NCBI GenBank assembly: GCA_964619365.1
Contig: CAZUDQ010000011.1
Location: 1-46,761 of the forward strand
Direction: 5' to 3'
Length of the DNA: 46,761 bases
Origin: an uncultured archaeon
GTDB lineage: Archaea; Altiarchaeota; Altiarchaeia; JAFGQM01
Shown piece by piece: positions 9,857 to 46,761 of this stretch; positions within the stretch are counted from its first letter, which is position 1; each line of letters opens with the position of its first letter. Below the pieces are notes generated by a model, which saw nothing but the letters and a program-made list of their open reading frames with translations, searched no databases and was not told the DNA's origin. A program made the position numbers and the translations under genes.

Positions 9857-11749
9857 ATGAAAATAAACAACGTTTTTAAAACTGGTATATTGGCAGCAAT
9901 CTTGCTTCTTGTAGCAATGCCTCTTGCATCTGCGTTTGAATTAAGCGTAGGGTGGGGGACAGGATACGGCTATGGATACGGTGGCTATGGATACGGAACT
10001 GGCTATGGATACGGAACTGGCTATGGATACGGAACTGGCTATGGATACGGAACTGGCTATGGATATGGTGGCTATCCCTATTACCCTTATGCAGTTAACG
10101 ATTATTACTCCGGTACAACCTATTATGGAACTGGATACGGAGATTACAGCTATTATTACCCCAGTCCGGACTATACGTTTGGATACGGTACGGGATATGC
10201 CCAGGACACAAGTCAGTATGTGGACAGTAGCTCAACAGTATATGTAGAAACACCCACATACACTGATTACTCAAGTAACTCTCTTTCCCATGCAACCACC
10301 CAAACTTACTGTGGAGACGGAATGTGCTCTGCAAGTGAGTCACAACAAAGCTGCCCCGCAGACTGCACCCCCGGATCCTATTGTGGTGACGGGGTTTGTG
10401 CAGGAGGGGAAACCTACGAATCATGCAGCTACGATTGCGAGAAGAAGAATAACTATTATTGTGGAGACGGCATCTGTTATGGCGGCGAGACAAAGTACTC
10501 CTGCCCGACAGATTGTGGCGCCCCTTCTTACTGTGGAGACGGAACTTGCGATAAAGACGAAACAAAACTTTCCTGTCCAAAAGACTGCGGTCTTGAGTCG
10601 TATTGCGGAAACGGAGTCTGTGACAAGGATGAGTCAAGTTACAATTGCGCAACAGACTGCGGTCTCCCGAATTTCTGCGGAGACGGAACTTGTGACAAAG
10701 ATGAGTCAAAGTATTCCTGCCCGACAGACTGCGGTTACCCTTCCTGTTCAAAGCCTTATGGTAACGAAGGCCAGAAGACCTGCTCAGGCCAGGAGATTCT
10801 CACATGTATGAGTGGTCTTTGGGATTTTGAGCGCTCGGTTCAGTGTTGCGGCGATTACGATTGTCCAAACGGATATTCCTGCAGTGGTTACTCCTGTGTA
10901 AAGGATGTAGCGATAATCTGTGGGGACGGACGCTGTTCTGACGGCGAAACGTCTTACAACTGCCCTTATGACTGTGGCATGCTCCCATGCACCGGATGCG
11001 AGTCCTCAGTAGTGTGTGGTGATGGTTATTGTGATTTTTCAAGAGGCGAATCATGTTCAAGCTGTCCTTATGACTGCGGTTCATGTGCGCCTAAAAACTA
11101 TTGTGGAGACGGTATATGTGACCTTAACACAGAATCTCAATATACTTGTCCACAGGATTGTGGGGACCCCATAAGCCACGAAGTCACGATGATTGCAGCA
11201 GATGACTGCATGGAAATTGTGCGCGGTAATAATGGCGAGTACCAGATACTTCTTACAAACAGAGGCGATGCTACAGAAACATTATCGATAATAATCTCAG
11301 GAGAGGCGGCTTCTTGGACGAGTGTGGCAGAAAGCCAGGTGACGCTTCTTCCAGAACAGAGTCGCGACCTTGATGTCTTTGTACATGTTCCAAGCGGACA
11401 GTCACCGGGACTTTACACACTTAATGTTAAGGCGAGAAACTCGAACCTTGAAGTTACAGATGAGCTTAAAGTGGATGTAAAGCTTCTAGACTTACAGACT
11501 TCAGTCAATGCTACAGAGACTGGAAGTGAGAATGAGGGCAACAATACACAAAGCGGAGTCATCCTTAGTCCGACAGGAGCTGTGATAGGTGGGATAGAAA
11601 TACCTATCTTGTGGATTGCAGTCGTGCTTGTTGTGGCGTGTGCGCTTCTTGGAGCCTACATTATAACAAAAAAGAGTCCCAAGTCTATGCCCGCTGCAGA
11701 AGTCACATACAAGAAATACGTCTCAAGCCATAATGTAACTGGCAAGTAA
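9857..11749 (+). CDS. Surface protein: Gly-Tyr repeat head, nine CG[D/N]GxC...CPxDC-type Cys repeats, Ig-like domain, C-terminal TM
   Basis: ATG 9857 follows a GGTGG SD-like sequence; signal peptide ..AMPLASA; GYGTGY repeats; YCGDGxC repeats; PTGAVI then TM. Confidence 0.85.
   Translation: MKINNVFKTGILAAILLLVAMPLASAFELSVGWGTGYGYGYGGYGYGTGYGYGTGYGYGTGYGYGTGYGYGGYPYYPYAVNDYYSGTTYYGTGYGDYSYYYPSPDYTFGYGTGYAQDTSQYVDSSSTVYVETPTYTDYSSNSLSHATTQTYCGDGMCSASESQQSCPADCTPGSYCGDGVCAGGETYESCSYDCEKKNNYYCGDGICYGGETKYSCPTDCGAPSYCGDGTCDKDETKLSCPKDCGLESYCGNGVCDKDESSYNCATDCGLPNFCGDGTCDKDESKYSCPTDCGYPSCSKPYGNEGQKTCSGQEILTCMSGLWDFERSVQCCGDYDCPNGYSCSGYSCVKDVAIICGDGRCSDGETSYNCPYDCGMLPCTGCESSVVCGDGYCDFSRGESCSSCPYDCGSCAPKNYCGDGICDLNTESQYTCPQDCGDPISHEVTMIAADDCMEIVRGNNGEYQILLTNRGDATETLSIIISGEAASWTSVAESQVTLLPEQSRDLDVFVHVPSGQSPGLYTLNVKARNSNLEVTDELKVDVKLLDLQTSVNATETGSENEGNNTQSGVILSPTGAVIGGIEIPILWIAVVLVVACALLGAYIITKKSPKSMPAAEVTYKKYVSSHNVTGK
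9983..10065 (+). repeat. Perfect 18-nt tandem repeat ggctatggatacggaact x4 plus a partial copy (GYGYGT)
   Basis: Copies start at 9983, 10001, 10019 and 10037, with a partial copy at 10055. Confidence 0.92.
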
Positions 11750-11755
11750 AAAACG

Positions 11756-12358
11756 ATGAAACAAATAACAGTATTCCTTGTTGTGCTAGCGGCAATAATG
11801 TTTAGTGCTTCTGCACTATCAGAGCTGGACATCGAACCCGTTTCGACAGAGGCTTGTTGCGGCACTGTAAAGTACGTATTATTGGTATCAAATGACCAGC
11901 CTTACCAGCGTTTTTACTCACTAAAGGCAACAGCTGATGAGGGAATAACGGTTGAACTGGCCCCAGACGTAATTTCAGTCGATGCAAACTCAAAAGAGAC
12001 GCTGATGCTTGTTGCCCGCCACAATTGCGACGAGAACAGACTAGCACCAGGAGCGTATTCAATACAGGTAACTGCAAAATGCGAAGTATGTGCAAATGAG
12101 ACTTATATCGCGAGTGCAAAACTCGTTGTTCCGGATTCATGTACATTACCAGTTCGTGTGAGCGAGCCAAAACCTGAAGAGAATAATACTACAGTTCAAA
12201 CTGAAGTGAATGAAACAGAGCCAACTAAACTCATCGCACCCACAGGAATGGCAGTAAGTTCCAAAGAGCCATCCAGCGAGACAACATTACCATGGACTCT
12301 TGCAGGGGTGTTTGCGTGTCTTAGTATTGCACTGGCCATAATCATAATAAAAAAATAA
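11756..12358 (+). CDS. Small anchored surface protein with one Cys-containing Ig-like domain
   Basis: Signal peptide, one beta-sandwich-like segment, Pro/Thr/Glu linker, PTGMAV, C-terminal TM ending KK; starts 6 bp after the previous gene. Confidence 0.8.
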   Translation: MKQITVFLVVLAAIMFSASALSELDIEPVSTEACCGTVKYVLLVSNDQPYQRFYSLKATADEGITVELAPDVISVDANSKETLMLVARHNCDENRLAPGAYSIQVTAKCEVCANETYIASAKLVVPDSCTLPVRVSEPKPEENNTTVQTEVNETEPTKLIAPTGMAVSSKEPSSETTLPWTLAGVFACLSIALAIIIIKK

Positions 12359-12359
12359 G

Positions 12360-14357
12360 ATGGAGACAAAGAACCTTGCTATATTTGTTTTAGCACTCAT
12401 TGGACTTACCGGTTTTGTCAGTGGTGCATGCAATGATTGCAGCCTTCAGGTAATCCCTGTAGCAAACAGTGTTTGTGCCGGTGAGCCTGCGCTCTTTGAC
12501 CTTGAGTTAACAAACATCTACGACGCTCCAAAAGAAATAAGTCTTAGTGCGGAAGGAGATGTTGCAATGAAAACGAATATGTCTTCAGCCGTAATGGTTG
12601 ATGCGTACGGGACAAAGGTTTTAAGGACTTCTTTTAGTCCATCAGAATATCCTTCTATTGGCGAGCACAGGCTTCGTATAACCGCAGAAGGATACGGCGT
12701 ACTAGATTCTGATGATGCTCTTTTTTACGTCAATGACTGCCACGCAGCTGGTCTCACACTTTCTTCAGACAAAGTAAGCTTATGTCAGGACGCAGTTGGA
12801 CGAGTCGATGTACTAGTGTCAAACACAGGTGACCGAAAGGACACATATTCAGTTGGCGTTGGCGGGATACCAAAGGCGCTTAAGGTAACTCTTGGAACTG
12901 GCACATTTGTCCTTGCTCCAGGCGAATCAAGAACATTTTCTCTTACAATAGAAGCGCTTAATAATGCATTTGGCGACTATGATCTTAGCGTCAGTGTCGA
13001 TTCACAATCAGGAAAGACTGTTAAAAGGAACCTTGGAGTAAGCCTTACAAACTGTTATCGCGTCAAGTTAGATGCCCCAGAAGAATTCAAGACCTGTCCA
13101 AGTGCAGGCCTCAGTTACACAGTAACTCTAAAGAACGGCGGATGCGCTAAGGACAATTACGAGATAGAAGTGGCAGGATGTGGCGCAAGAGTATCCAAAA
13201 CTAATCTTGACCTCGCGCCCGGAGAAGAAACAGAAATCATTGTGAGCGTTCCTGCGTCGGCAAAAGACTGCGTTACCACGGTATTTGCAAGAAGTGAGTA
13301 TGACGTGACAAGCGCGAGTACACATGTACGTGTCCTTGATTGCTATGACGTTGATATCGAAATAATCCCTGGTGAAGTATCAGCATGCCGTGGTGAACCG
13401 ATAGATTATATCTTAAATGTTACAAACACGGGTTTTTACGCAGATTCATATTCCCTGCTCCTAAGCGGGCTTAATGTGAACTTAGACCCAAATCAGATTT
13501 ATCTGACTTCAGAAGAAAGCAAACAGATTCCTTTTACTATGTGGGGACTTTGGTGTGTTCCAACTGATGATGCCAGCTTCTATGCCTTTGCAAAGGGACA
13601 GAGCTCTGATAAGGCTGAAGGGAAGCTCCATTTCATAACAGCAAAAGACGGCGTATGTTCCGGACTTGAGCTGATGCCTTCAATAGACTCACAGGAAATA
13701 AACTGCGACTCTGGCGCTTATGAGTTCTACGTCAAAAACACAGGTTATACAATTCAGGAAGTCGTTATAACAAGCTCATCCGATGGTGTTACCATACAGC
13801 CACAGAAAATCAAGATTCAGCCGTATGAAGCAAGACCTATTGCCGCGTACATAACACATGGCACAACAGCAGACAAGATAACAATAAGTGCGGAGAGCGA
13901 AGATAAGCGTGCGTTCCTAGAGCTTGAAATTAATGAAACAAACGGCGTTTGCACAGTCTCAAGACCCAAAGCTCCAGAGGAGTCAGTAGACACCCTCTTA
14001 GAATTACCAGAAGGTTCATTTGGCATTGATAATTCAACAACAAATAACACAGTAAAGAATAACACGACAGGTGCGGCAATATTCTTTGACGAAAAATCAG
14101 TTCAGCTGATTGTTGTGGGCTGTATTGCAGCTGTGACCCTTGCATTACTCGCACTTATCCTCAGGCCAAAAAAAGTCTGCCCGGCCAAAGTAAAAAAGAC
14201 CTCGCATTCTCTTGAAGCCGCAAGGCGCATCAAGGAGAACGCCAAAAAGGCAAAGCTCCCTGTAAAGAAAGCAACAAAAGGCAAATCCTCTGAAAAAGAC
14301 GAGGACAAAGACCACATAAAAAAGATAAAAAGCGCCATATCAAAGGCCGAGAAATAA
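12360..14357 (+). CDS. Anchored surface protein with about five tandem Cys-pinned Ig-like (NEW3/CARDB-like) domains and a Lys-rich cytoplasmic tail
   Basis: Repeated C..G....L.N.G...D.Y.l pattern; TTGAAI then TM; 1-bp gap from the previous gene. Confidence 0.8.
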   Translation: METKNLAIFVLALIGLTGFVSGACNDCSLQVIPVANSVCAGEPALFDLELTNIYDAPKEISLSAEGDVAMKTNMSSAVMVDAYGTKVLRTSFSPSEYPSIGEHRLRITAEGYGVLDSDDALFYVNDCHAAGLTLSSDKVSLCQDAVGRVDVLVSNTGDRKDTYSVGVGGIPKALKVTLGTGTFVLAPGESRTFSLTIEALNNAFGDYDLSVSVDSQSGKTVKRNLGVSLTNCYRVKLDAPEEFKTCPSAGLSYTVTLKNGGCAKDNYEIEVAGCGARVSKTNLDLAPGEETEIIVSVPASAKDCVTTVFARSEYDVTSASTHVRVLDCYDVDIEIIPGEVSACRGEPIDYILNVTNTGFYADSYSLLLSGLNVNLDPNQIYLTSEESKQIPFTMWGLWCVPTDDASFYAFAKGQSSDKAEGKLHFITAKDGVCSGLELMPSIDSQEINCDSGAYEFYVKNTGYTIQEVVITSSSDGVTIQPQKIKIQPYEARPIAAYITHGTTADKITISAESEDKRAFLELEINETNGVCTVSRPKAPEESVDTLLELPEGSFGIDNSTTNNTVKNNTTGAAIFFDEKSVQLIVVGCIAAVTLALLALILRPKKVCPAKVKKTSHSLEAARRIKENAKKAKLPVKKATKGKSSEKDEDKDHIKKIKSAISKAEK

Positions 14358-14607
14358 GCGCATCCTAATTCACTCTAACGCCCCCCGTACATCCCATTTA
14401 AACGGTTCTTTAGAAAGTTCTATACTTATTTCCTTACAATAATTACATCCACCTTCTTAGCTTGTGCTTGCGACTTTTTTTGATAAGAAAATAAGACAAA
14501 AGTAAGAAAGTAAGAAAAAAGTGCGTTTCTTTTTATACTTTCCACAAAAATAGTTCATTGTATTCCCAAACTAGTCCGCCGTAATAAGTTGACAACACGA
14601 AAATAAA

Positions 14608-15624
14608 ATGAAAACTAGGTTTGCGATTGGACTCGCAATAATCACACTGGTGTTTCTTGCTCTTGTGCTACCTGCACAGGCAACCTACTACTATACGGAC
14701 GAATACTTTGGCGCGCGCTTTGGCGATTCAAACCTAAGACCTGTTGTTAAGCAAAGTTCAAACACCATGCACTTTGTCGACTCAGACGCGTTCCATGACG
14801 GCTTTGGAAAAAGCAATCTTAAGACAGGTAATACTGGCACATCAAAAATCGTAACGATAAATCAAACAGATTCCGATTCATCAAGCCCACAAATCATTGA
14901 AAACAAAAGTTTAGAAACAAATAAAACCAAAGTCGAGGACTTTGTTGTGCTAAACGAAAGCAACGAAACAAATACCACAAACAAAACCTCGGCTAAACTT
15001 GAACTCTCTTTTGATGAGGATGAGCTAGATTCTGCAAACGAGTCAGAAGGTCCAATATTATTAGGTGATGGCAACAAAACCCTAATCGTGCTATCTGAAG
15101 CTAATGGAACTGTTATAGAAAAAACTCCTGAACTAACTGGGGATGATCTCACTCTTGGAATTCCAGAGGAAGTCAAGAGTCTAGCACCCACTGGTGCACT
15201 CCTCACGCACATGCGTTCTTCTCAGCAGTTAATGGCAGTAGGCATGCTCTTTGTTGTTGTAATCATAATGTTGGCAGTTCTCTTTACCCGCAACAAAAAG
15301 CCAAAGAAAAAAGCGAAGAAGATAACAAACAAAGCAGAGAAAAAAGAGCTCAAAGCCGACAAGGAAGCAGAAAAGCCCGCGCCAAAAACAAAAGAAGATT
15401 CTGAGAACACCAAAGAAGTTTCCGAACCTGTAAAGAAAAACAGTGCTTGGGTCGAAGGAGACTTTTTCAGTCAGGCAAAGACCAAGAAAATTGCTTCAGA
15501 GAAAAAGAAGGAAGAATCCGCAAAAAAACAGGTAAAAGAAACTTCATCACCAAAGGCAAAAGAACCCAAAAAGGAATCCAAGCTTGAGACAAAGCCTTTC
15601 CTCCTTAAGATAAGTGAGGACTAA
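14608..15624 (+). CDS. Single-pass low-complexity surface protein with a long Lys/Glu-rich cytoplasmic tail
   Basis: Signal peptide, N-glycosylation sequons (NQT, NKS, NKT, NES, NET, NTT), PTGALL, TM, roughly 110-aa charged tail. Confidence 0.75.
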   Translation: MKTRFAIGLAIITLVFLALVLPAQATYYYTDEYFGARFGDSNLRPVVKQSSNTMHFVDSDAFHDGFGKSNLKTGNTGTSKIVTINQTDSDSSSPQIIENKSLETNKTKVEDFVVLNESNETNTTNKTSAKLELSFDEDELDSANESEGPILLGDGNKTLIVLSEANGTVIEKTPELTGDDLTLGIPEEVKSLAPTGALLTHMRSSQQLMAVGMLFVVVIIMLAVLFTRNKKPKKKAKKITNKAEKKELKADKEAEKPAPKTKEDSENTKEVSEPVKKNSAWVEGDFFSQAKTKKIASEKKKEESAKKQVKETSSPKAKEPKKESKLETKPFLLKISED

Positions 15625-15733
15625 TTCCACTAGTCTTTTAAGTGTTTGTCACATCTCTTCCTTAATATCTTCCCTTTTTATTTTCTCTCCCATTTACCTT
15701 AGCACTTTCCTTTCATAAGGGGTGGAAGAAATA

Positions 15734-17518
15734 ATGAACAAAAAAAGTTTAGTCGGGGCATTTGCCTTGGCCGTATTAATCGTATCGATGTTTGCAGGCG
15801 TTTCTGCACTCGTCTATCCAGCAACAGATATTGAGATTGTTGTTGTAGACAAGTATGACAGCCCAATTAAGGGCGCGACAGTGAAATTTAGAACCAGTAG
15901 CGGAGGCACAGCCTGCTCAAATGGCGGAACACTCACAACAGACTCAAAAGGAAGGGTCTATTGCGATAACGTTGACATGTATTATAACTATAAAATAGAA
16001 GTCACAGCGAACAAGTACCAAAAGATTTCCAATTATAGGGACCTTAAGGATTTTGACTGCGATGACTGCACATTGAAAGTGGTTATGCGTCCGGATACCG
16101 CGCGCCTGAGAATTTATGTCCAGGACGAAGATGGATATTCAGTAAGCGCCGCTTCAGTCAAGATAGAAAGCGATGACTCCAGCCGTTCAAAAAGCAAATT
16201 CGGCGGTTATGACATGATAATCTTCCCGGACAGTGCAAGCAAGTATGAAGGGTATGAATATACAAACACGATAAAGACCGATTCCAGTGGAAAGGCGACC
16301 TTTGAAGATATTGAGTCCGACTGTGACTACGAAGTACGCGCATCAAAAAGCGGCTATGATTCAACCGATCGCACAGTACATCTTGATCTCGACTCAAACC
16401 GTGAAAGGACAATGACTCTTGACGGTGGAAGTTCTTCATACGGTCAGGCAACATATACTACAATAACTTATGATGCCACCACGAGAACGCCCATTGAAGG
16501 TGCAACAGTTACTGTGATGGACAGGCGAAGCTACTCAAAATGGACGCTTACCTCAAACACAGACGGTATTGCAGTATTTAATGTCCCGCCAGCCTGTTAT
16601 GATTCAGCATCCACAAAGACAGGCTATGGCACAGATGCCGAGACTAATTTCTGCCTTTCAGACGGTTCAGCAACAACAAAGAGCTTTTACATCCAGAGTT
16701 TAAAGCGCCCGCCGATTGCAGACGCAGGAGCAGACCAGTATGCGACACCAGGTCAAGTATTTACTCTTGATGGAAGTGAATCTGTTGACCCCAACGGAGA
16801 CCCGCTTACTTACGCGTGGACAGACTCTCTGGGCGAATCCATAAAGGCCGGAGAAGTTGTCGAAGCATCATTCCAGAAAGCTGGAACGCATGTTGTGACA
16901 CTCACCGTTGATGATGGTTACAACACAGACTCTGACTCGTGCAACATTTATGTCTCAAATCCACAGAACTGTGGTGACGGCGTATGTGACGAGATAAAAC
17001 AGGAGACTGGAAGCTGTCCGCAGGATTGCCCAATATGTGGTGATGGAGTATGTGGAAAGAACGCAGATGAGCAGGAGGACAACGCTCAGAATTCAGCGTA
17101 CTGTCCGGTGGATTGTGATATCGCAGTCGAGATTCTTGTCATGACAAACTCCGAGCCGATAACAAAAGGCCAGAGTGCGACAGTCGAGATTGTCGACCCA
17201 CAGACAAAGCAACCAATCGGAAAAGGCGGGGAAGCAATAATCACAAACCCACAAGGGACTGTATTTAACGAGGATCTTGTTGGCGGTAAAGTACAGGGAT
17301 CCTTTGATTATGCGGGGACGTATACGATAAAGGCGAGTGCAACAGACTATGCCGGCGCGACAAAGACCTTGCAGGTGGCAGAGGAGCCTTCTGACTGGAC
17401 TATGTTGATAGTCGCTCTAGTGATTATCATTGCAATAATTGCCATCTATATGTTTCTTTCCTCGAAGAAAAAGCATTATCCGATAGAAGGTGACCACCCA
17501 GCAGAACACACCCCTTAA
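15734..17518 (+). CDS. Surface protein: carboxypeptidase-regulatory-like domains, PKD domain, CGDG Cys repeats, Ig domain, TM
   Basis: ATG 15734 after ggggtgga; motifs TTDSKGRV, PPIADAGADQ...LDGSESVDPNGDPLTYAW and CGDGVC; C-terminal TM. Confidence 0.85.
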   Translation: MNKKSLVGAFALAVLIVSMFAGVSALVYPATDIEIVVVDKYDSPIKGATVKFRTSSGGTACSNGGTLTTDSKGRVYCDNVDMYYNYKIEVTANKYQKISNYRDLKDFDCDDCTLKVVMRPDTARLRIYVQDEDGYSVSAASVKIESDDSSRSKSKFGGYDMIIFPDSASKYEGYEYTNTIKTDSSGKATFEDIESDCDYEVRASKSGYDSTDRTVHLDLDSNRERTMTLDGGSSSYGQATYTTITYDATTRTPIEGATVTVMDRRSYSKWTLTSNTDGIAVFNVPPACYDSASTKTGYGTDAETNFCLSDGSATTKSFYIQSLKRPPIADAGADQYATPGQVFTLDGSESVDPNGDPLTYAWTDSLGESIKAGEVVEASFQKAGTHVVTLTVDDGYNTDSDSCNIYVSNPQNCGDGVCDEIKQETGSCPQDCPICGDGVCGKNADEQEDNAQNSAYCPVDCDIAVEILVMTNSEPITKGQSATVEIVDPQTKQPIGKGGEAIITNPQGTVFNEDLVGGKVQGSFDYAGTYTIKASATDYAGATKTLQVAEEPSDWTMLIVALVIIIAIIAIYMFLSSKKKHYPIEGDHPAEHTP

Positions 17519-17539
17519 TTTATGAGATAGCGTGTATTT

Positions 17540-17622
17540 CCGTGCCTTTGGCACGGGTATAATCTTATTTTGTAAATTCACATCCAGCTATTTTGGGGCT
17601 GGATGTGTTAATTTTTTGTTTT
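17540..17622 (+). terminator. Two perfect hairpins followed by a T-rich tract
   Basis: ccgtgcc-ttt-ggcacgg (17540-17556) and cacatccagc-9nt-gctggatgtg (17579-17607), then ttaattttttgtttt. Confidence 0.5.
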
Positions 17623-17770
17623 GCCCCGTCACGAATTTAAGGCGGGATTACTACCTTTTTATACCTCTTTTTTTAGGGAACCTAAATTCTGCTCAAAAAC
17701 AGTAACGTTTTTATAGGTCGAGACCTTAACGTATGCGAAAATATTCAACTCGTAAAAAATTGTTGTTAAA

Positions 17771-19645
17771 ATGGATTCCAAAAAAATAGTTCTCGCATTT
17801 GCGCTTGTCGCAGTATTGATGATTCCAGCTGCCCTGGCGTCATCAGAATATATGAACGTCAAAGTAGTAGGTAAAAGTGTCGATTCAGACGGTGACCTTA
17901 AGATTGTCGACCTTGAAGATGCTGAAGTCACGATAAAATTTGAGGATGACGGCGATACAAACACATCCTGCCATAAAGTTAAGACGGATGGCGACGGTTG
18001 GATAGACTCCGAAGGTGATTGCGATAAGATTCCAGATGAGGCAGATATTGTAGAACTAAAAGTCGAGCACGATGATTACTTAACAACAGATGTTGATAAC
18101 GATGATTATGATTTTTTAGATGACTGGGATGATAATAAGAATGAGATACTCATCGTTCTTAGCCCAAAAGACGAGCTCTCAATAGAGATAGTCGTAGTTG
18201 ATGACGATGACGATGAAATCTCAAATGTAGATGTCACTGTCGAATCACTTGACAAAGATTGGGATGCAGATGATTTCAGGGACGTCGCAGATTATGAGGA
18301 TGCAGACCTTGTGGCGTTTATAGGTGGCGAAGAAGAATATCCCAAGTTTGATTATGATGAAGACGAGTCGTCAGACTCTGACGGGATAACAAACTTTGAC
18401 AGTCTTGCATTTGGCACGCGTTATAAGATAGTCGCAGAAAAAAGCAAATACCGCTCTAATGAAAAGTTCATAGTACTGGGTAAAAATGATGATGAAAAGG
18501 ATTACGAGCTTGAACTTGAGCGCACAGGAACTGCAGTTGCAACAGTTACTGTAAAAGATAACGAAGGCTTACTTGTATCCAATGCAGAAGTGACTCTTGT
18601 TAACAAGAGGACCGATGCCGAATATGTCGAGCTTACCAGTGCAGGAGGCTCCGCAGTATTCAGGAATGTTGTTGCACCCGACTCCTATGATATTGCAATA
18701 ACAAAGAGTGGGTACTCAACAGCATCAGACACAGATTACTACATATCCCTTGACGGTATGTCGCGGACATTCATACTCCAGAAACTAACTCCTGATAACC
18801 GTCCGCCGGTTCTTGTACTCGTAAAGGAGACCTATGAAGTCATGCTTGGAACAGAACTTGATTTCGCAGATGCAATAGATGTTTCCGACCCAGATGACGA
18901 CGAGCTTGTCATTGTTTGGATGGACTCTGGGATTCAGATTGCAACAGGTCTTACTCCAAAGCTTCTTTTTGATACGGCTGGCGAGCATAAAATCACAGTA
19001 AAAGTCTCTGACGGCTATGACGAAGTGATAAAGATAATAACAATCAATGTCATCTCGCCTGATGATTGTGGTGACGGTATTTGCTCCATTGCTGAAAAAG
19101 AAGCAGGGACTTGTCCAGAGGATTGTCCCGTATGTGCTGACGGCATTTGCGGAGCTGGAGAAGGTGTTTCCGACTCGCCAGAATACTGCCCGGAGGATTG
19201 CAACATATCACTTACAATAACTTTAGGTGTTTCTCTTTCAGAGACGCTTTATGTGGGCAACGAGACAACAATATCTGCAATCGACCCTGCGACAAAAGCA
19301 CCGATATTGGGGGCCACAGTAAAAATAATCACGCCAAACGGCTCTGAAGAGATGCTCAGTACGGTTGCAGGAAGTGTTGATTACACTTTTACGACAGCAG
19401 GAACTTATGTTGTGGCAATCAGCGCTGACAGATACATGGGAGACCTGGTTGAAGTCAAGGTAGAAGCAAAAGGTAATGACCTGATTTTATGGATTGTAGT
19501 AATCATAGTTATTGTCGTTGCGGTCTTTTTCATAATCCGTTATATGAACGAGAACGGAGGCTTTAAGTTCGGCGGAAAAAAGAGTAAAGGTTATCGCACG
19601 GGTGGCAATTACAAACGCAATAAATCAACACTCGGGTCAATTTAA
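17771..19645 (+). CDS. Highly acidic paralog of the 15734 protein with the same domain order
   Basis: Signal peptide, Asp-rich N-terminal half, NRPP..DPDDDEL..W PKD-like segment, CGDGIC x2, Ig domain, TM. Confidence 0.85.
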   Translation: MDSKKIVLAFALVAVLMIPAALASSEYMNVKVVGKSVDSDGDLKIVDLEDAEVTIKFEDDGDTNTSCHKVKTDGDGWIDSEGDCDKIPDEADIVELKVEHDDYLTTDVDNDDYDFLDDWDDNKNEILIVLSPKDELSIEIVVVDDDDDEISNVDVTVESLDKDWDADDFRDVADYEDADLVAFIGGEEEYPKFDYDEDESSDSDGITNFDSLAFGTRYKIVAEKSKYRSNEKFIVLGKNDDEKDYELELERTGTAVATVTVKDNEGLLVSNAEVTLVNKRTDAEYVELTSAGGSAVFRNVVAPDSYDIAITKSGYSTASDTDYYISLDGMSRTFILQKLTPDNRPPVLVLVKETYEVMLGTELDFADAIDVSDPDDDELVIVWMDSGIQIATGLTPKLLFDTAGEHKITVKVSDGYDEVIKIITINVISPDDCGDGICSIAEKEAGTCPEDCPVCADGICGAGEGVSDSPEYCPEDCNISLTITLGVSLSETLYVGNETTISAIDPATKAPILGATVKIITPNGSEEMLSTVAGSVDYTFTTAGTYVVAISADRYMGDLVEVKVEAKGNDLILWIVVIIVIVVAVFFIIRYMNENGGFKFGGKKSKGYRTGGNYKRNKSTLGSI

Positions 19646-19740
19646 ACTACACAAAGGGTCAATAATTTTGGCTCTTTCCTTTATATTCTTTTTTATTATA
19701 ATATCAATAGTTATACCCAAAGTCCAAAATAGGAAAAGAA

Positions 19741-19893: not shown

Positions 19894-19900
19894 GATTAAA

Positions 19901-22900
19901 ATGGGTATTGGGGAGTCCCTTTCAGATGCGTGGCATGCGCTTGAGGACAAGACATGGAGCATTGCCGATGCGTTTGAGGATAAGGGGGTTCCTATGGCAT
20001 CCTTTTGTGATTCCCGTGGCATATCTCCTGCAATAATAATTATAGGAATAATAATAGCAGTAGCCTTGCTTTTAGTGTTTGTCATGGCAAGCCCTGGTGG
20101 CCCATCAGGTAATGCCATCGTCTCAGTTAAGGTTGTTGATGAGAGTGGCAATCCTGTAAAAGGACAGTATGTGGTATTGACTACGCCCGGTGGAGTGGCT
20201 TTACCTAATGTTAAGACCGACCAAAGCGGAAAAGCAAGTTTTGACGAGGTTCCTATGGGTCAAAGTGAAATTTCTATATCATCTGATATCTATTCAGGTT
20301 CAAAAACAGTTGATGTCACGAGTAACACGGTCTCAACAACTCTTGAAGTAAAAGCTGGCAACGGCAAGATTGAGCTTGTTGTGACAGATGAATCGGGTGC
20401 TCCGATAAGTGTAGGCTATGTTGAAGCAAGGACGCTTTCAGGCGATGAAGTGGCAAAAGTCACTCTTGACGGCTCCACTGAATACACTATGGATGTTCCT
20501 GCGGGCTCTTATTATGTTAAAGTATACTCCAATTCAGGAGGTCTCCTTAAACAGGCAACAACAGTTGTTGCAGTCGACGGGACCCAATCTGTAGAGTTTG
20601 AAGTCAGTGCAGACGAGGCAAATTCAGCAACAGTCACAGTAATCATAACAGATGAGACTGGAAGCGCAGTATATGGTGCATATATCGCTCTTTATAATTC
20701 ACGCAACCAAGAGCAGTATGGGGCTCAGCAGATGACAGATGCACAAGGAAAAAGCGCGTTTAGTAACATTCCGACAGGAGCTCAAGTCTACCCCACAGTT
20801 TACGTTCCAAATGACAGGCGTTATGCCACACTTGATGAACTTACAGCACAAAAAGATTACAAAACAACCGTAAGAGATGCACAAACCGAGATTCCGGTAA
20901 CATTAAGTCTTAACGGGCGCGTTTCGGTTTATGTCAGGGACGCAGAATCAAAAGCGGCGATTTCAGGCGCGCAGGTCACAATAATGAATCTTGCGAGTGA
21001 ATCGCTCTCAGAAACAGAGTCTACGAATTCAGACGGCCTTGCCTCATTTGTAGGTTTCGAAGAACTCACAGACATTTATCCACAGGTTGTTGCACAGGGC
21101 TTTTTGGAGTATGACAATAGCCAAGATGTAAGAACCGTCAGATATGACGACCCATATATCACATTCTATGCGGACCTTGAACGCGATGGCTCTGCGATAT
21201 CCTCCGAGATAACACTTAATACTGAGGATTATTACAATGACCCGATTTCAGGTGCGACAGGAACACTTTCAGAATATGGCGGAACTTTCATCAGAAGAAT
21301 AGTCGCTGATTCAGATTCTCTGACATTTGCAGTAGACGCAAACAAGGATTATACGGTTTCCTTATGGAAAAACGCCTACCAGCGCCTTTTACTTTCAGGA
21401 ATCGAAGTGGGAACCCAGACTGCAAAGATGGAAACTGCAAACTCGGCAAACTCGGCAACCGTGCGCGTATGTTCTTTCCTGGAAATAAATGGCATAAATT
21501 CCCCCGCAAGCTCACAAGTGGAACTCCATTACCTTGACCGTGAACTTATATCACGAGCAGAAACTGTCGGTGGTACAGATGGAGACAATTGTATTACATT
21601 TACCAATGTTCCGATAAGCTGGAGTGTTTATGCGACAGCAATCATGGACGGATATTCTCTCTTGGAAAGTGATGTCATCTCAGTCATACCTGTCGAAGCC
21701 GGAATAACGGAAATAAACCTTACATTTGGCAATATAAACCCCTCAATGTCTGAATCGGGCTCTATAAAGGTCTGCGCGCTCGGAGATTCTGATTTGCCAG
21801 TAAGCGGCGCAGAGGTAATACTTTATGATATAGATCTTGACGGGCCAAGCTGGTCTGGCGACTACCGCAAAACAACAGGCTCTAGCGGATGTGCGACCTT
21901 TGAAGATATTCCTTCTGAAAAAGCCGATTACGAGGGAGTATTGACTCCGGTTAACGTCTATCCGATAATAACTGCACAGGACTATGCGACATTTAATGGT
22001 AAAACAGAAGGCAAAGTCGTTGAAGTACAAGGTGGACGCATAACGCCGATAAATGTCAGGCTTTCAACAGGAAACCAGATTTGTATTGCAGTGACCTCAG
22101 GCGGAAATCCTTTGACTGGCGCCGCCGTTTCAATCTGCGGAAACGCCCAGTGTGGGGAATACATAGAGACTAAGCTTACAGATTCTGATGGCCATGCAAT
22201 GTTCTCGGTTTCCATGAGTTCAATTAGCGCAAAAGCAGTTTCAAACCAGGCAGGAATTCAGGCAGAAGCTACAGAGAATTTTGCCTTATCTCAAGTATCT
22301 GCCGGGAGCTGCGGAACAATAGAACTCGAACCCGTTTCCAATTATGCAAGCGTTTCTATAGACGCAATAAGTTCTCTTGAGAATGTAGAACCTGGCGAGA
22401 GTTCTGAAATAAAATTTACAGCACGCCTTGACGGGGAGCTTGCAACAGGCGGAACCTATGACGGGCAGAACATACTTGGTTCGGACGGTCTGACAAAAAT
22501 AGAGATTGATTTTGAGTCTGCGGCAATGGACGGCGGACTTTTGAGGGAAGCTGATGCCAACGATGGCGAATATGCAATGCCCTTTATTGCTCCGACGCAA
22601 GCAGGCAATTATTACGCTTACCTTACAGCAGCGCTTCCCGACTGCGACTCATGCGGCCAGTCAAGAACTTCAGTAACGATTGTTGTAGGTTATGATGATG
22701 AAGACTCTGACGGAGTTAAAAACGAGTACGATCTTTGTTCAAATACACCAGTAGGAACTCTGGTTGATTCAAATGGATGTCCAGTCGCCTCATCAACAGA
22801 TACTGACGGAGATGGTGTTCCTGATGATGTAGATTCATGTCCCGGAACTCCATCAGGCGTGCAGGTGGACACGTATGGATGCGAGCAGGCGAGTTCACTG

Positions 22901-28617: not shown

Positions 28618-31503
28618 ATGAACAGAACAATGTACCAAAAGAGTCTTTTTGGAATATGTATGGTTTTTGCACTAGTGCTGGTTTCTGGCGCTATGGCTAC
28701 CCCCTCAATAGATATAATATCACCTATAAACGACTTGAATACCACAAATACCTCAGTTTTAATAAACGTCTCGATTGACGAAGACGACTTAAAGGAGCTT
28801 AGCTTTGATTGGGACGGGGATTTAACAACAATTACAGTTTCCTCAAGCGGCACGCCCAAGCTTGCATCATATGACTCAGGATATTCTAATACACAGGGCC
28901 AGGACAACTGGTACTATGAGTATTATGACGGAGACTTTAACAATCTGACTTGGAACGCCAACATAAACGGCTGGACTGAAGACAATTCTTGCGTTGATGA
29001 ACCAGACTGCGAATTCATGTTAGTTTATGGTGACCGCGTTCATCCCAGATATGATTCCGATGCAGTGATTGCTTGGAAATCGGATTTTGATGGTAAGGTA
29101 CTTGTTAATATTACTTTCTCAGATGCGGGCGGCACTTGCTGGAAAGATGGTGTGACTGCAAAGCTCCTGCTTAATGACAATGTCCTTTTTTCAGAGGATT
29201 ATCCTGAAGAGTTTAGTTCAACAAACATACTTTCATTTAACGGCACTCCTGAAAATGGTGACCCTGTAGAATCTTCAATCTCAGAAGATGTTATTGTCTG
29301 TGAGGCAAACGTCTCAGCTCTAAAAGTAAACATGACAGTATACACAGCAAGCCAGGGTGGAATTGTAAGCTACGAAGTAAACGTCACAAACACAGGCTAT
29401 GTCAGTTTAAATGATGTCACTGTAGTTGATTACCTACCAGATAAATTGTTCTTCAATGCCACAAACTCTACCATCACACCGCAGATTAACTTAACTGCAA
29501 ATACCCTTACTTGGGAGATTGGAACGCTTTCTTCCGGAGAAACCTGGTTAATTTCACTTGACACAAAAGTCGTTGAGGGAATAGACGGGTGCATCCCGCA
29601 AACAAATATCCTGGGCGTAAACGGAACTCCAGACAACGGCGATCCCGTTTATAGCATGGTTTCAGTGACACTTGACGTATGTGAAGCAAACATTTCCGCC
29701 TTAAAGGTGAATATGACAAGCCACATTGCAAGCCAGGGTGGTATTGTCAGCTACGAGATGAATGTTACAAACACAGGTAATGTGACTTTATATGATGTTA
29801 TGGTGGTTGATCAGTTACCAAGTGATTTGACATTCAACTCGAGTAATCCGATTCCACAAATAAATTCCAGCACAAACACACTTACCTGGAACGCGGGCGA
29901 CCTTAGTCCAGGCGAAGTCTGGAGTGTTTTGCTTGACACTAAAGTAGCAGACGGCATTGTTGCTTGTATCAACGAAACAAACCTCTTAACAGTCAATGGG
30001 ACGCCTCTAAACGGCGACCCCGTTTATAGCAGCGATTCGATTACTCTTGAAGTCTGCGAGGCAAACATGTCTGCGATTAAAGCTGACATAACCGCATACC
30101 AGGCAAGCCAGGGTGGTATTGTAACCTATGAGATAAATGTCACAAACTCTGGATATGTCGACCTTTATAATCTTACAATGGTTGATTACCTGCCTGATGA
30201 ACTCTTGTTCGAGTCAGCAAATATCACTCCAGACATCAACTCAAGTTCAAAGAACCTTACTTGGTATCTGACGTCTCTTGCTCCAGGCGAAGTTTGGCAG
30301 CTTTCACTCGACACAAAGGTAATCCCTGGCATTGAAGGATGTTTACTTGAGACAAACTTCCTTACGTTTAATGCAACGCCTGCAAACGGAGATTCCGTGG
30401 GTGCAAACATATCAGTCAATACCACGATTTGTGAGGCAAATGTCAGCTCGATAAAGCTTGATGTCACACCTTCACCTCCAGCACCTGGCGGATGGCTTTG
30501 GTACGAGATAAACGTCACAAACAATGGTGATATTCCCTTAAGTCAAGTTATCCTAATTGATTACCTGCCAAATGGAACTTACCTAGACTCCACTTCACAC
30601 AATGGAACACTGCAGGCTGATAACACTACCATACTTTGGAATCTTGGAGTGCTTAACGCAAGTGAATCAGTAATAGTAGAGCTTAATATAACAGTCGACA
30701 TGAACGCGACAAATGGTACACTCCTTAGAAACAATATTACAGTCGTTGGTGTCCCATACAACGGAGACAACGTGACTGACGCGTCAACAACAGTCGTTGG
30801 TGTTCACGTTCCAGCAGTAGACATACAAAAGACAGCATCAAGCGTGCGCATTTACACTAAGGAAAAGGTCACTTATACGATAAAGGTGACAAACACAGGA
30901 TGGCTTAACTTCACATGGATGTATGTCGAGGACAAGATTCCTGCGGGAATGACTTTTATCTCGGCAAACAATAACGCAACAGTTAATGGGTCTACAATCT
31001 GGTGGAATTTATCAGACGTCACAATCGGCGAGTCTGTTACATTTAAGGTGATACTGAAGTCAAAGACAGTTGGTACAAAGACAAATGCCGCCCTGGCTTT
31101 AGCGCTTCCGACAAATGGTCCTAGAATAAACGCAACAGTGTCTAAGGACATACTTGTGATAAACAGGCCGACAACTGGCGGTGGCGGCTCAGGCATGCTT
31201 CTCTTTGGACCGGCAGCAGCTCCTTCACCACAGCCTTCACCACAGCCAGCACAGCAGCCAAATAACCCAAGCTCAGGTGATTCCGGAACGCCGGATTCAG
31301 GTACTGGAGATAACACCCCCCCGGGCGCACCAAGTCTGACACCTAGCTCAAATCCTGGTCCAACAGGTGCAGCAGTAAGTGGAGACTCAGGACTGCTTTG
31401 GATAGTCGGTTTCTTACTTATCATAGGTATCCTTGGAGCAACCTTCTTTTTCTACGGTACGAAAAAAGGAAAAACTTATCGCGAAAAAGCGCGAGAGGAA
31501 TAA
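28618..31503 (+). CDS. DUF11-type (five repeats) glycoprotein-like surface protein with Pro-rich linker and C-terminal TM
   Basis: GGIVSYE.NVTNTG...L..V.VVDYLP-type units x5; dense N-x-S/T sequons; PSPQPSPQPAQQP linker; PTGAAV; TM. Confidence 0.88.
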   Translation: MNRTMYQKSLFGICMVFALVLVSGAMATPSIDIISPINDLNTTNTSVLINVSIDEDDLKELSFDWDGDLTTITVSSSGTPKLASYDSGYSNTQGQDNWYYEYYDGDFNNLTWNANINGWTEDNSCVDEPDCEFMLVYGDRVHPRYDSDAVIAWKSDFDGKVLVNITFSDAGGTCWKDGVTAKLLLNDNVLFSEDYPEEFSSTNILSFNGTPENGDPVESSISEDVIVCEANVSALKVNMTVYTASQGGIVSYEVNVTNTGYVSLNDVTVVDYLPDKLFFNATNSTITPQINLTANTLTWEIGTLSSGETWLISLDTKVVEGIDGCIPQTNILGVNGTPDNGDPVYSMVSVTLDVCEANISALKVNMTSHIASQGGIVSYEMNVTNTGNVTLYDVMVVDQLPSDLTFNSSNPIPQINSSTNTLTWNAGDLSPGEVWSVLLDTKVADGIVACINETNLLTVNGTPLNGDPVYSSDSITLEVCEANMSAIKADITAYQASQGGIVTYEINVTNSGYVDLYNLTMVDYLPDELLFESANITPDINSSSKNLTWYLTSLAPGEVWQLSLDTKVIPGIEGCLLETNFLTFNATPANGDSVGANISVNTTICEANVSSIKLDVTPSPPAPGGWLWYEINVTNNGDIPLSQVILIDYLPNGTYLDSTSHNGTLQADNTTILWNLGVLNASESVIVELNITVDMNATNGTLLRNNITVVGVPYNGDNVTDASTTVVGVHVPAVDIQKTASSVRIYTKEKVTYTIKVTNTGWLNFTWMYVEDKIPAGMTFISANNNATVNGSTIWWNLSDVTIGESVTFKVILKSKTVGTKTNAALALALPTNGPRINATVSKDILVINRPTTGGGGSGMLLFGPAAAPSPQPSPQPAQQPNNPSSGDSGTPDSGTGDNTPPGAPSLTPSSNPGPTGAAVSGDSGLLWIVGFLLIIGILGATFFFYGTKKGKTYREKAREE

Positions 31504-33390: not shown

Positions 33391-33410
33391 GTTCTCCTTG
33401 CTAATGGGCG

Positions 33411-36910: not shown

Positions 36911-36970
36911 GTACCCAAGTACTATTTTTTTACATCACAACCTCAAATTAGCCTTGAGATAAAAGCCAAG

Positions 36971-38455: not shown

Positions 38456-38466
38456 GATAAGAAAGA

Positions 38467-40055: not shown

Positions 40056-40065
40056 TTCCTTTTCC

Positions 40066-41856: not shown

Positions 41857-41934
41857 TTCGCCACCCATATATTTCAAAGTACTGTATATAAGAGTGATAA
41901 GTAAGGGAGCGATGGGCGGTGGTTTATCCGGCCC

Positions 41935-42819: not shown

Positions 42820-42820
42820 C

Positions 42821-43798: not shown

Positions 43799-43847
43799 TC
43801 TTTAGAGCTAGGATTAGTGGATAATATTTGGTTTAAGCGTATAAAAA

Positions 43848-44783: not shown

Positions 44784-44855
44784 TTTATTATTAAATTATT
44801 AATTAAACCCTTCTTTTGAGCGAGCAGAAATAAAAGGCATAGGTTTTAGCGTATT

Positions 44856-45206
44856 TTAGATTACAAAAGACCGCGCTTTCTTAAGGCTGCCTGATACTCC
44901 AATGACTTTTAGGGCAACCGGAGTCTTGTCTCTGCCCGCACTTGACACAAATGCCAAGGCCATGCGCCCGTCTTCGACATGACTTCTTTCTACCTTTATT
45001 ACCCCTTTCCCCGAATTTTCCTCAAAATCAACGAGTCGCAGGTTCATCTCCGAAACGCCAATCTCGCCATAAAGCGAAAGGGCACCTGACATAATAGCTC
45101 CGCTAAGATCCTCCTTTGACGTGCTTCCTTCCATAAGTTCAAATGCAAGGTATCTATTCTTCTCCCGCCACGCCGGTGGCAGGGGCTTAAGCGCAGTTTT
45201 TACCAT
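44856..45206 (-). CDS. rnp2: Ribonuclease P protein component 2 (Pop5/Rpp14 family)
   Basis: LPP..REKNRYLAFE, LYGEIG, VSGSLKKA. Confidence 0.92.
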   Translation of the reverse strand: MVKTALKPLPPAWREKNRYLAFELMEGSTSKEDLSGAIMSGALSLYGEIGVSEMNLRLVDFEENSGKGVIKVERSHVEDGRMALAFVSSAGRDKTPVALKVIGVSGSLKKARSFVI

Positions 45207-45238
45207 ATCGTTTAATTTAACGTTTATGTAATATTAAT

Positions 45239-46219
45239 ATGGGCGTTAACCTAAAGGACCTTTTTGAAGCAGAGCCCCTAAGCTGGGACAATCTCCGCGG
45301 GGAAAAGATAGGGATAGACGCGATGAATGCGCTATACCAGTTTCTTGCAACAATACGCCAGCCTGACGGCACGCCGCTTATGGGCATATCAGGCGAAATA
45401 ACAAGCCATCTAGCCGGGCTTTTCTACAGGACGACTCGAGTCCTTGAAGCTGGAGTAAAACCAGTTTATGTATTTGACGGAAAACCCCCTGATTTAAAGG
45501 CGCGTGAACTCGCGACAAGAAAGGAAAGAAAGATTATTGCCGAGGAGAAATGGGCACGCGCTAAGGAAGCAGGAGATATTGAAGCGGCCAGGAAATACGC
45601 ACAACAAACATCACGATTTACTCCAGAGATGATAGCTGGCGCAAAAGAGCTTCTTTTGGCAATGGGTGTTCCGATTGTAAACGCCCCTTCCGAAGGCGAG
45701 GTGCAATCTGCCTTTATGGTACAGGAAGGTGACCTATGGGCATCAGCCTCCCAAGACTACGATTCAATTGTCGCAGGATGCCCAAGGACGATTCGCAACT
45801 TAACAATGCAGGAAAAATATTCCTTAGAGCTTTTAGACTTAGAAAAGTGTTTATACCATCTTAGTATAACTCACGAGCAACTGGTTGACCTGGCAATACT
45901 TGTCGGAACCGACTTTAACCCTGGCGGAGTAAAGGGAATCGGCCCTAAAAAAGGCCTGAAAGTAGTAAAAGAGGGAAAGATGAAAGAATACCAAGAAGCC
46001 CTTGGAGACAAGTATGAAATGATTCGCGAGCTCTTTTTGCATCCGCAAACAAGCAAGGATTATTCCCTTGAATGGAAGCCCCCAAACGCGTCAAAAATAG
46101 AGGCGATACTTGTCGAAAAGCATGGCTTCTCAGAAATGCGTATTTCCCGCGGAATAAAGCGTTTAAACGATGCGCATGATAAAAATATAGCGCAGTCTTC
46201 CCTTTCCAATTGGGTTTAA
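45239..46219 (+). CDS. fen: Flap endonuclease 1
   Basis: MGV, IDAMNALYQFL.TIRQPDGTPL, VFDGKPP, APSEGE, SQDYDS, GTDFNPGG; PIP-box-like QSSLSNW. Confidence 0.97.
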   Translation: MGVNLKDLFEAEPLSWDNLRGEKIGIDAMNALYQFLATIRQPDGTPLMGISGEITSHLAGLFYRTTRVLEAGVKPVYVFDGKPPDLKARELATRKERKIIAEEKWARAKEAGDIEAARKYAQQTSRFTPEMIAGAKELLLAMGVPIVNAPSEGEVQSAFMVQEGDLWASASQDYDSIVAGCPRTIRNLTMQEKYSLELLDLEKCLYHLSITHEQLVDLAILVGTDFNPGGVKGIGPKKGLKVVKEGKMKEYQEALGDKYEMIRELFLHPQTSKDYSLEWKPPNASKIEAILVEKHGFSEMRISRGIKRLNDAHDKNIAQSSLSNWV

Positions 46220-46381
46220 TCCAAAACATACTTTACAGGCTCAACCCTCGGGTATGCGAGTCTTGATTTTTTATGACGCAAAAACAAGAGAATTAATACT
46301 AATTATCCCGGCAATATCTCCCAGTGCAAAAAATTACAAAAAAACTAAGCTTTTTATTCTTTATTCGGTTATATTCCCAGC

Positions 46382-46761
46382 ATGAGCCCAGAGGGAGAAA
46401 GGAAAAACTCTGATTCATCCTATAAGATGAAGCCAAAACTGGTAATAGCGCTAGTTGCCCTTGCGTTAGTTCTAGGTTTTTCCATGCTTGTTTTTGAACT
46501 GCCCTCCCTTAAGGGAGTAAGCGCTCAGGGCCCAACTGGGATGGCAATAGATGCCGACGAGCTTTACGAGTACTTTATCACACCCATAGAATCAAACGAA
46601 TCTGGTGGAGACGCTCCCCTACTTGGATTGCAAGAGGAACTAAATGTCACTGGTGGGGATGGCTTTGGAACAAACGCATCTTCAGAAGACGGTATAATCA
46701 GGCTTTTATCGAGCGCTTCAGTCCCTTACGACTCACTTGTTGCCTACTGGAGCTTTGATGC
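46382..46761 (+). CDS. 3'-partial surface protein, probably LamG-like
   Basis: Open frame MSPEGE...MKPKLVIALVALALVLGFSMLVF...QGPTGMAIDADELYEYF...SLVAYWSFD runs off the window; LVAYWSFD is a typical first strand of a LamG-like domain. Confidence 0.8.
   Translation, partial: MSPEGERKNSDSSYKMKPKLVIALVALALVLGFSMLVFELPSLKGVSAQGPTGMAIDADELYEYFITPIESNESGGDAPLLGLQEELNVTGGDGFGTNASSEDGIIRLLSSASVPYDSLVAYWSFD

Follow-up and report, generated by a model that had tools for sequence, protein, structure and literature searches.

In one overview of prokaryotic systems, the sorting signals of surface proteins are C-terminal, those of intramembrane enzymes abutting the membrane helix and LPxTG having a spacer (10.1101/2023.06.07.544157). 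Cleavage of surface proteins is also described for LapG and DvhG, transglutaminase-like proteases that cut adhesins at TAAG and PAAG, DvhG being predicted to be membrane-bound (PMC10690286). The present analysis concerns a short juxtamembrane motif of archaeal surface proteins noticed in the 46,761-nucleotide contig CAZUDQ010000011.1 of an uncultured archaeon of the Altiarchaeota; the window is this whole 46.8-kb contig, and the genome assembly to which it belongs amounts to 1.21 Mb and is 85% complete. The closest RadA sequences come from records labelled Altiarchaeota and Iainarchaeum, at 62-65%, apart from that of one unclassified archaeon at 74%, and suggest the Altiarchaeota, a DPANN lineage. 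The motif, [P/T]TG[A/M][A/V/L][V/I/L] in its strict form, lies ahead of a C-terminal anchor helix in five proteins of the window (C-side copies) and past an N-terminal helix in a sixth (N-side copy). We tentatively propose that it is a release site of the signal-peptidase type that is reused ahead of C-terminal anchors. The ways in which DPANN archaea attach to their hosts, build surfaces on them and depart from them are largely unknown and most of their surface proteins are unannotated; a six-residue mark that picks out a subset of these proteins provides a predicted mature terminus, a searchable list of clients and two named candidate enzymes.

The preliminary description of this DNA, made from its letters alone, had stated that the motif matches no established sorting signal exactly. 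Our comparison bears this out, as the motif fails the definitions of LPxTG, of the archaeosortase signals (PGF-, PEF- and VPXXXP-CTERM), of the rhombosortase signal and of the Cys-containing signals. Like LPxTG, it has a T-G core followed by a hydrophilic spacer, a helix and a basic tail, but it lacks the LPxTG spacing, is conserved past the Gly, tolerates replacement of its Thr and has N-side copies; furthermore, sortase (PF04203) was found in none of five genomes at E<=0.1, with controls matched in three and the source genome 85% complete. The PGF-CTERM (ArtA), GlyGly-CTERM (rhombosortase) and CGP-CTERM signals also combine a short motif, a helix and basic residues after a Ser/Thr-rich linker and have several clients per genome. 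However, they abut the helix and are C-terminal, whereas the DPANN motif has a spacer, occurs in both polarities and has no NCBIfam match. It is also free of the Cys that is invariant in MYXO-CTERM and CGP-CTERM, and GG occurs in some relatives only, with a spacer. An anchor swap of the glycosylphosphatidylinositol type fits poorly, as no C13-family transamidase exceeded the cut-off in the five genomes and the C-side copies have charged tails. The adhesins LapA and DvhA resemble the motif proteins in having a short site of small residues near the retention element of a large surface protein, and a tethered enzyme of the transglutaminase fold (PF01841) is encoded in the source genome; the motif differs from these sites by its consensus (AA in two of the six window copies), by its archaeal Sec substrates, by helical anchors and by its many clients. 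Lastly, the Sec signal peptides cut by signal peptidase I (AbpA, cannula proteins, TasA/SipW) share with it small residues at -3 and -1 after a helix and a defined mature N-terminus, and the fold of one motif-bearing family is nearest to these subunits (Z 5-7), but the motif can lie 10-18 residues from the helix, its T-G is conserved, and it is found ahead of C-terminal anchors and inside internal linkers as well.

No curated model covers the motif: when 13 window proteins in full length and 13 segments of motif plus helix were compared with NCBIfam and Pfam, no sorting-signal model matched. A sequence search of the PDB with the motif alignment and a profile comparison of the N-side and C-side alignments gave helix matches only, and the ESM Atlas yielded one match at 0.77, below its bar. 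A description of the motif was not found in the literature searched, where short motifs are hard to search and one could have been missed. New here are the counts for the two anchor polarities, the argument from register and the survey of enzymes. A signal read on both anchor polarities would extend the C-terminal-only scheme of sorting; if the N-side copies were only long signal peptides and the C-side copies uncut, the result would shrink to a lineage-specific annotation rule.

Position, enrichment and spread of the motif

The six in-frame motifs of the preliminary description, five before C-terminal helices and one of opposite polarity after an N-terminal helix, were all recovered by translation at exactly those places, on the + strand, as are the genes that hold them and the sites at 4200..4217 and 20102..20119 described below, each within a called gene (open reading frames (ORFs) 9848, 11756, 12360, 14608, 28618 and 46382). 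Each C-side copy is followed, after 5-12 residues, by a hydrophobic helix and a basic tail. PTGAVI (11570..11587), six residues ahead of helix 11606-11662, is carried by a type I surface protein of 633 amino acids (aa; 9848..11749) with a signal peptide, Gly/Tyr repeats, Cys-rich repeats, an immunoglobulin-like (Ig-like) domain and the linker that precedes the motif. PTGMAV (12239..12256), 12 residues ahead of helix 12293-12349, belongs to a 200-aa type I protein (11756..12358) with a single complete Ig-like domain, a disordered linker that holds the motif and a KK tail, and TTGAAI (14064..14081), eight residues ahead of helix 14106-14162, to a 665-aa type I protein (12360..14357) with tandem Ig-like domains and a basic tail. 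PTGALL (15187..15204) is likewise eight residues ahead of its helix (15229-15285), in a 338-aa type I protein (14608..15624) with a low-complexity ectodomain and a long Lys-rich cytoplasmic tail, and PTGAAV (31360..31377) five residues ahead of helix 31393-31449, in a 961-aa type I protein (28618..31503) with five DUF11 repeats and a Pro/Gly/Ser linker. The N-side copy, PTGMAI (46532..46549), follows by 12 residues the N-terminal helix (46439-46495) of a surface protein whose gene is cut by the contig end (46382..46759); a linker separates helix and motif, next comes a conserved start module, acidic and aromatic, that 13 paralogues have in common, and the predicted cut would fall after the Ala. 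The hexapeptide core PTGMA followed by V or I is identical on both anchor sides. The ectodomains, first regarded as otherwise dissimilar, are less so than was thought, since three have weak FixG_C-type Ig matches in common and four of the genes lie next to one another. A recent duplication at the DNA level does not account for the copies, whose flanks agree at 5-13 of 30 bases. Two C-side copies carry cytoplasmic tails of 64 and 112 residues.

The expected excess of the motif near helices was found in the proteome of the source genome (1146 called ORFs, with helices taken from a hydropathy scan and not from a trained predictor): the strict pattern has nine matches, eight of them juxtamembrane compared to 0.15 expected. 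Outside the window contig, two of three matches are juxtamembrane (0.05 expected, p 7.5e-4), one of the two being in a paralogue of the sixth protein. When juxtamembrane zones were shuffled internally, which keeps their S/T/G-rich composition, none of 2000 shuffles reached the observed counts, whether on the C-side (6 of 79 zones compared to 0.01) or on the N-side (2 of 208 compared to 0.01); with the window contig removed, the strict counts fall to one on each side, reached by 17 (C-side) and 30 (N-side) of 2000 shuffles. The remaining strict copy belongs to an internal linker, 600 residues away from the nearest helix. The genome has 45 proteins with two predicted helices (type I-like), and since only seven of these carry the motif, a PSGAFV variant included, it marks a subset of them and is no general anchor signal.

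Conservation was examined in 61 genomes of the phylum, all of one class, seven of which belong to the same family as the source genome. Motif-plus-helix matches are present in all seven. Among orthologues assigned by their ectodomain only, 20 of the 27 rows with a complete anchor (three truncated rows being excluded) fit a relaxed pattern, a proportion biased upward because the contigs were chosen for holding a profile hit; by eye, the seven other rows are five variants, one degenerate copy and one low-score stray. By comparison, the relaxed pattern occurs in none of four orthologues of two motif-less neighbour genes. The orthologue linkers around the motif are unalignable, and the Thr is frequently Ser or Ala. 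In other families of the phylum, profile matches mostly cover the helix only, and three copies of the I-T-G type were confirmed in frame (G016, G021 and G044) out of 13 loci read, namely 12 picked by eye from a noisy list, among the matches listed, plus one tool-cut locus. The motif genes and a neighbour with PKD and carboxypeptidase-regulatory domains (window 9848-19645) recur together, as a whole or partial block, in G002, G004, G005, G006 and G007, which suggests a conserved envelope module of the family.

Beyond the phylum, a broader form, [IPLT]-T-G-x-[AVS]-[VILT], was searched in 1.44 Mb from seven other DPANN genomes. It revealed 12 juxtamembrane matches out of 64, compared to 1.2 expected; two of these 12 were known beforehand and steered the choice of contigs, and the pattern was shaped after some matches had been seen. 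Six are N-side and six C-side, among the latter one spurious case where a helix was wrongly predicted in an enzyme. The counts for four control patterns were 1/38, 0/61, 0/55 and 0/40. On 0.4 Mb held out with the pattern fixed, 2 of 24 matches were juxtamembrane compared to 0.36 expected, a marginal excess (p 0.049), with 0/78 for controls. In a T-G-anchored test that included the source genome, the joint pattern occurred in 11/77 N-side and 11/42 C-side cases and in 73/4121 elsewhere, and zone shuffles in the other DPANN genomes gave 8 of 329 N-side zones compared to 0.66 and 5 of 105 C-side zones compared to 0.28, never reached in 2000 shuffles each. The strict pattern is lineage-specific, with no match in 434 zones of the other DPANN samples. 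Overall, the motif is present in at least four sampled lineages, labelled Altiarchaeota, Woesearchaeota/Nanoarchaeota, Iainarchaeum and Aenigmatarchaeota.

The DPANN samples also include helix-motif-helix miniproteins (77 and 84 aa), a helix-motif protein of 52 aa, one copy behind a lipobox-like Cys and two tandem copies within one internal Pro-rich linker; a homologue search with the 77-aa miniprotein returned no matches. A motif-plus-helix profile compared with 1.84 billion representatives retrieved 17 proteins and, of the 11 read, ten are close relatives and one is an unrelated Ig-repeat protein: with profiles this short, other phyla are out of range. Scans of 49 and 61 genomes for the pattern at the DNA level gave too much noise for presence/absence calls. 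Of 30 loci checked from them, three are juxtamembrane by rule, one doubtfully, and none of the eight from genomes labelled non-DPANN, a weak control of one locus per genome, the enrichment statistics covering DPANN genomes. Clustered in one region of G083 (C1, about 406-428 kb; L328-L329) are the genes of a giant protein of 4936 aa, of two pilin-like paralogues, of an 86-aa protein made of a helix and a strand and of several Ig proteins. Many of these proteins carry the motif or a variant of it, and the region is possibly an undescribed donor-strand filament locus.

Register of the N-side and C-side copies

The N-side copy of the window belongs to a set of 13 paralogues of the source genome (itself included) with a common start module, which gives a fixed register to the residues that precede it. 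Position -1 is A in 12 paralogues and S in one, position -3 is G in 11 and S in two, and position -5 is P in nine; the Thr position is Q, L or S in 11, with Gln in six. Signal peptidase I follows the -1/-3 rule, with small residues at both positions. All 13 paralogues present such residues at the same register, so that they agree with this rule and with the cut of the archaeal bundling pilin AbpA, reported as AMA|TL (PMC9245690). The slot fits a signal-peptidase-I register, with G-x-A and a putative cut before I or V. In four paralogues it lies directly at the end of the hydrophobic stretch, in the manner of an ordinary signal peptide, and in the nine others, the window copy included, after a longer linker. 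One of the four had been overlooked in the preliminary description: LSSAAV (4200..4217), in a 1852-aa GLUG protein, has the same register as the sixth copy directly at an ordinary signal-peptide end. The start module itself (window 46547-46576 and 4215-4244) heads 13 large surface proteins, six of them of more than 1,400 aa, and its window copy has no Pfam or NCBIfam match. A possible variant, PSGNAI (20102..20119), lies five residues past the N-terminal anchor helix of a 1490-aa protein.

A second N-side series comes from an unrelated 217-aa family of Woesearchaeota, whose 28 members were collected by whole-protein homology. The T and the G are each present in 27 members and the Ala two residues on in 22; this T-G-x-A lies about 12 residues past the N-terminal helix, in a gappy linker. 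In the structural model of this family, the motif starts inside a segment (31-41) with a predicted local distance difference test (pLDDT) score below 50. The structures nearest to the model are those of donor-strand filament subunits, and their first residues fall at the motif (model residues 38-40): residue 1 of the chain corresponds to model residue 40 in 9ikk (Z 7.3, root-mean-square deviation (rmsd) 4.0, 147 residues aligned) and to model residue 38 in 9bac (Z 6.9, rmsd 4.3, 138 aligned) and 9h8b (Z 5.9, rmsd 4.7, 140 aligned). Such subunits are reported to lack a cleaved or predicted signal peptide and to polymerise via their N-terminal strand, and their processing by signal peptidase I is reported or predicted (PMC11494351, PMC12518558, PMC9245690).

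The C-side copies have a looser register. The motif-to-helix spacer is 4-13 residues long in 35 C-side rows, and this spacer suggests a peripheral rather than an intramembrane enzyme. Most of the rows without G-x-[AS] have an Ala directly after the Gly, then a hydrophobic run, and a cut after that Ala would be possible, with a floating register. As A or S often occupies the Thr position in relatives, the invariant core is a Gly and a small residue before a hydrophobic one. In the model of the 200-aa window protein, the Ig domain is complete and the motif falls in a disordered stretch of linker (within segment 138-177, pLDDT below 50), and neither this model nor that of the Woesearchaeota family packs the motif onto its own domain. 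A self-complementing strand in the 200-aa protein was dropped in view of the complete Ig domain (the alignment has four rows), as was Thr-linked glycosylation, the Thr being replaced by Ala or Gln in many copies. The five C-side copies of the window are upstream of their helix; they could act like a signal-peptidase site but they are not signal peptides.

Candidate enzymes and competing explanations

The preliminary description saw no candidate enzyme in the window, and there is indeed no dedicated peptidase gene beside the substrates there; candidates are found elsewhere in the genome. Signal peptidase I, encoded by a single gene of the assembly (G000:C2:61581-62519) and present in 32 of 33 other genomes, is the only tested candidate present almost everywhere. 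In four relatives (G002, G004, G006 and G007; L383, L384, L387 and L388) its ORF is of about 490 aa and has, ahead of the helix, an extra N-terminal domain of some 240 aa, which resembles the endonuclease V/DUF99 type; the source genome and G001 retain only the first few residues of this leader. A second, divergent signal-peptidase-like family (alignment A3; L372, L375, L377, L379 and L381) was rejected as a general partner, being strong in 17 of 72 genomes, mostly of the Woesearchaeota/Nanoarchaeota type, and in none of the 29 searched in the phylum; its proteins are of 150-200 aa with an N-terminal helix and a long tether, and one member bears the motif itself. CPBP/Rce1 proteases (three of five genomes) and a stalked Cys enzyme (C2:94686-95987; six of 80 genomes and none of the seven relatives, by a single query) were likewise set aside. 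The latter and G000:C2:68828-70099 are both membrane proteins in which a zinc ribbon lies on the cytoplasmic side and a transglutaminase-like Cys domain on the outer side, borne in one of them by a coiled-coil stalk. A search for a peptidase or transpeptidase that co-occurs with the motif succeeded only in part: sortase and the archaeosortase family do not track it, and the transglutaminase-fold candidate presented below co-occurs loosely. Two short exosortase/archaeosortase-family proteins of no named subfamily have distinct settings: G000:C1:231102-231722 (L111) is flanked by a pilin-like gene and by that of a probable secretion ATPase, and G000:C6:73384-73911 comes directly after a type I surface protein, of which it may be the dedicated enzyme.

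The motif is probably cleaved in some way, as three of the readings considered here would have it, and a signal-peptidase-type site, which we prefer with some reserve, appears the most economical single one. The site would comprise a turn residue (often Pro), a Gly or small residue at -3 and an Ala (sometimes Ser or Gly) at -1, with a cut before a hydrophobic residue, and would sit in an exposed linker on the outer membrane face. On the N-side it would be a long, delayed end of the signal peptide, the protein being exported, held by its helix and then cut free with a defined N-terminus, which would serve as donor strand in pilin-like families. On the C-side the same site would let a subset of type I proteins leave their anchor, most simply through the same enzyme, the 4-13-residue spacer looping back to the membrane; this last step is the one that we infer most cautiously. 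Several observations weigh against such a site. Its weak point is geometry, because signal peptidase I is described as cutting downstream of a hydrophobic domain (PMC6098224), and no precedent for a cut ahead of a C-terminal anchor was found in the literature. No single cut register fits all copies as written: G-x-[AS] is present in only 19 of the 35 C-side rows, while in the others the cut would have to fall one residue earlier or else after the Gly, and the presence of a compatible bond in every row is partly built into the search pattern. In the Woesearchaeota family, the supposed -1 is V, N or I in six of 28 members, and the conservation of T-G (27 of 28) exceeds what signal peptidase is known to need. 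The structural Z scores of this family are below 8, a range that the tool calls common, and Foldseek with the same model found nothing at E<=0.001, so that the coincidence with the mature start is only a lead; this pilin-like family was not found in the source genome. Furthermore, the miniproteins, the copy with a lipobox-like Cys and the internal tandem copies have little to release, and the near-universal presence of signal peptidase gives no evidence from co-occurrence.

The geometry would be solved by a peripheral enzyme indifferent to anchor polarity, and the motif could be read in this way by a dedicated membrane-tethered Cys enzyme of the transglutaminase fold (G000:C4:85108-87018) that would shed or transacylate the ectodomain from either anchor, as LapG does with LapA. 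This is the reading closest to the idea of the preliminary description, and we judge it rather unlikely. The candidate is a type I protein with a signal peptide, a C-terminal helix, a PF01841 match and a Cys-His-Asp set that looks intact and is conserved in the Woesearchaeota orthologue. Orthologues (E<=1e-26) are present in the seven relatives; elsewhere in the phylum the count is four genomes out of 28, and it is 18 out of 23 for the Woesearchaeota/Nanoarchaeota type and zero out of nine for genomes labelled non-DPANN. Of the three motif copies confirmed in frame beyond the family, two come from two of the four phylum genomes (G016 and G044), and the fold has a precedent for adhesin release in LapG and DvhG (PMC10690286). 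However, the gene is distant from every motif gene, the assignment of the candidate is by PF01841, only some motif copies have the dialanine, and a single query did not find the enzyme in the motif-bearing G061 and G063 (0.7 and 0.5 Mb, probably incomplete) and G021 (87% complete, with weak PF01841 matches only); its co-occurrence is loose, the motif census outside the family comes from the 13 loci given above and kin are not independent. An uncut motif is also unlikely in our opinion, although it best accounts for the miniproteins and also for the tandem internal copies and the lipobox-like-Cys copy. A turn and a short strand would then serve as a docking or structural element by which membrane-held stalks bind a partner (an outer layer, a filament base or a modifying enzyme) or sit on the membrane surface. 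Indifference to polarity is natural for a binding motif, T-G is near-invariant while the supposed -1 varies, and an 89-aa ORF matches the Woesearchaeota pilin-like family only in the helix, motif and strand. Docking leaves unexplained, however, that in one family of paralogues an ordinary signal peptide may end at this slot and that the motif coincides with the mature start of donor-strand subunits, and neither model packs the motif onto its domain.

The two sides could also carry look-alike signals, the N-side copies being signal-peptidase sites and the C-side copies a tripartite signal by which a rhomboid- or archaeosortase-like intramembrane enzyme would swap the helix for a lipid. We consider this improbable. 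The C-side copies do show a motif, a helix and a basic tail, and the source genome has two exosortase/archaeosortase-family genes over the cut-off (a family present in six of seven relatives) and one rhomboid (found in four of five genomes). However, archaeosortase-family genes were not found in the motif-bearing G082, G083 and G063, the rhomboid scores 43 compared to a rhombosortase cut-off of 84, known signals of such enzymes abut the helix, two copies are followed by the long cytoplasmic tails given above, and the same PTGMA core stands on both sides in one window. That the motif has no function and merely reflects linker composition and the common ancestry of a few adjacent paralogues is highly improbable. 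It is true that four of the six copies are in adjacent genes, some with Ig-like domains in common, that the strictly held-out test is marginal and that the broad patterns were shaped on matches partly seen, but the composition-preserving shuffles, the control patterns and the retention of the motif in the orthologue rows and in an unrelated family (27 of its 28 members) largely refute this explanation. The preliminary description proposed an extracellular protease or transpeptidase that recognises TG-x-small-hydrophobic from either anchor: the motif is real, enriched and present in both polarities, and processing has indirect support, whereas TG recognition is too narrow, because the Thr is replaceable and the constant part is the Gly and the small residue before a hydrophobic one, and the N-side register is explained without a new enzyme. 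A bolder extension, which we find doubtful, would be a polarity-independent surface-processing code of DPANN archaea, in which one peripheral enzyme, either signal peptidase in a new role or the tethered transglutaminase-fold protein, would cut the motif past an N-terminal anchor, ahead of a C-terminal one and also between two domains of a giant protein; adhesins would be released, donor strands freed for the growth of filaments, and the new C-terminus of one protein possibly re-ligated to the new N-terminus of another.

Other features of the window and of related genomes

Surface-protein genes run through the first 31.5 kb of the window, and a scan for promoters and terminators gave a signal at chance level. 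A different juxtamembrane element (amphipathic, F-x-x-W, then S-A-x-R-S before the helix) closes several large motif-less proteins, at 2634-4025 in the window and on C2, C6, C15 and C16 of the source genome. The 964-aa exported protein encoded at 24373-27267 is Cys-rich in its N-terminal part and, in its centre, hydrophobic and rich in Ala and Gly; it has no clear family match, and its likeness to a membrane-inserting or fusion-type segment is an impression only. In two related genomes, G002 (C85) and G026 (C79), RadA is encoded by 839-aa ORFs with a long in-frame insert, which is probably an intein.

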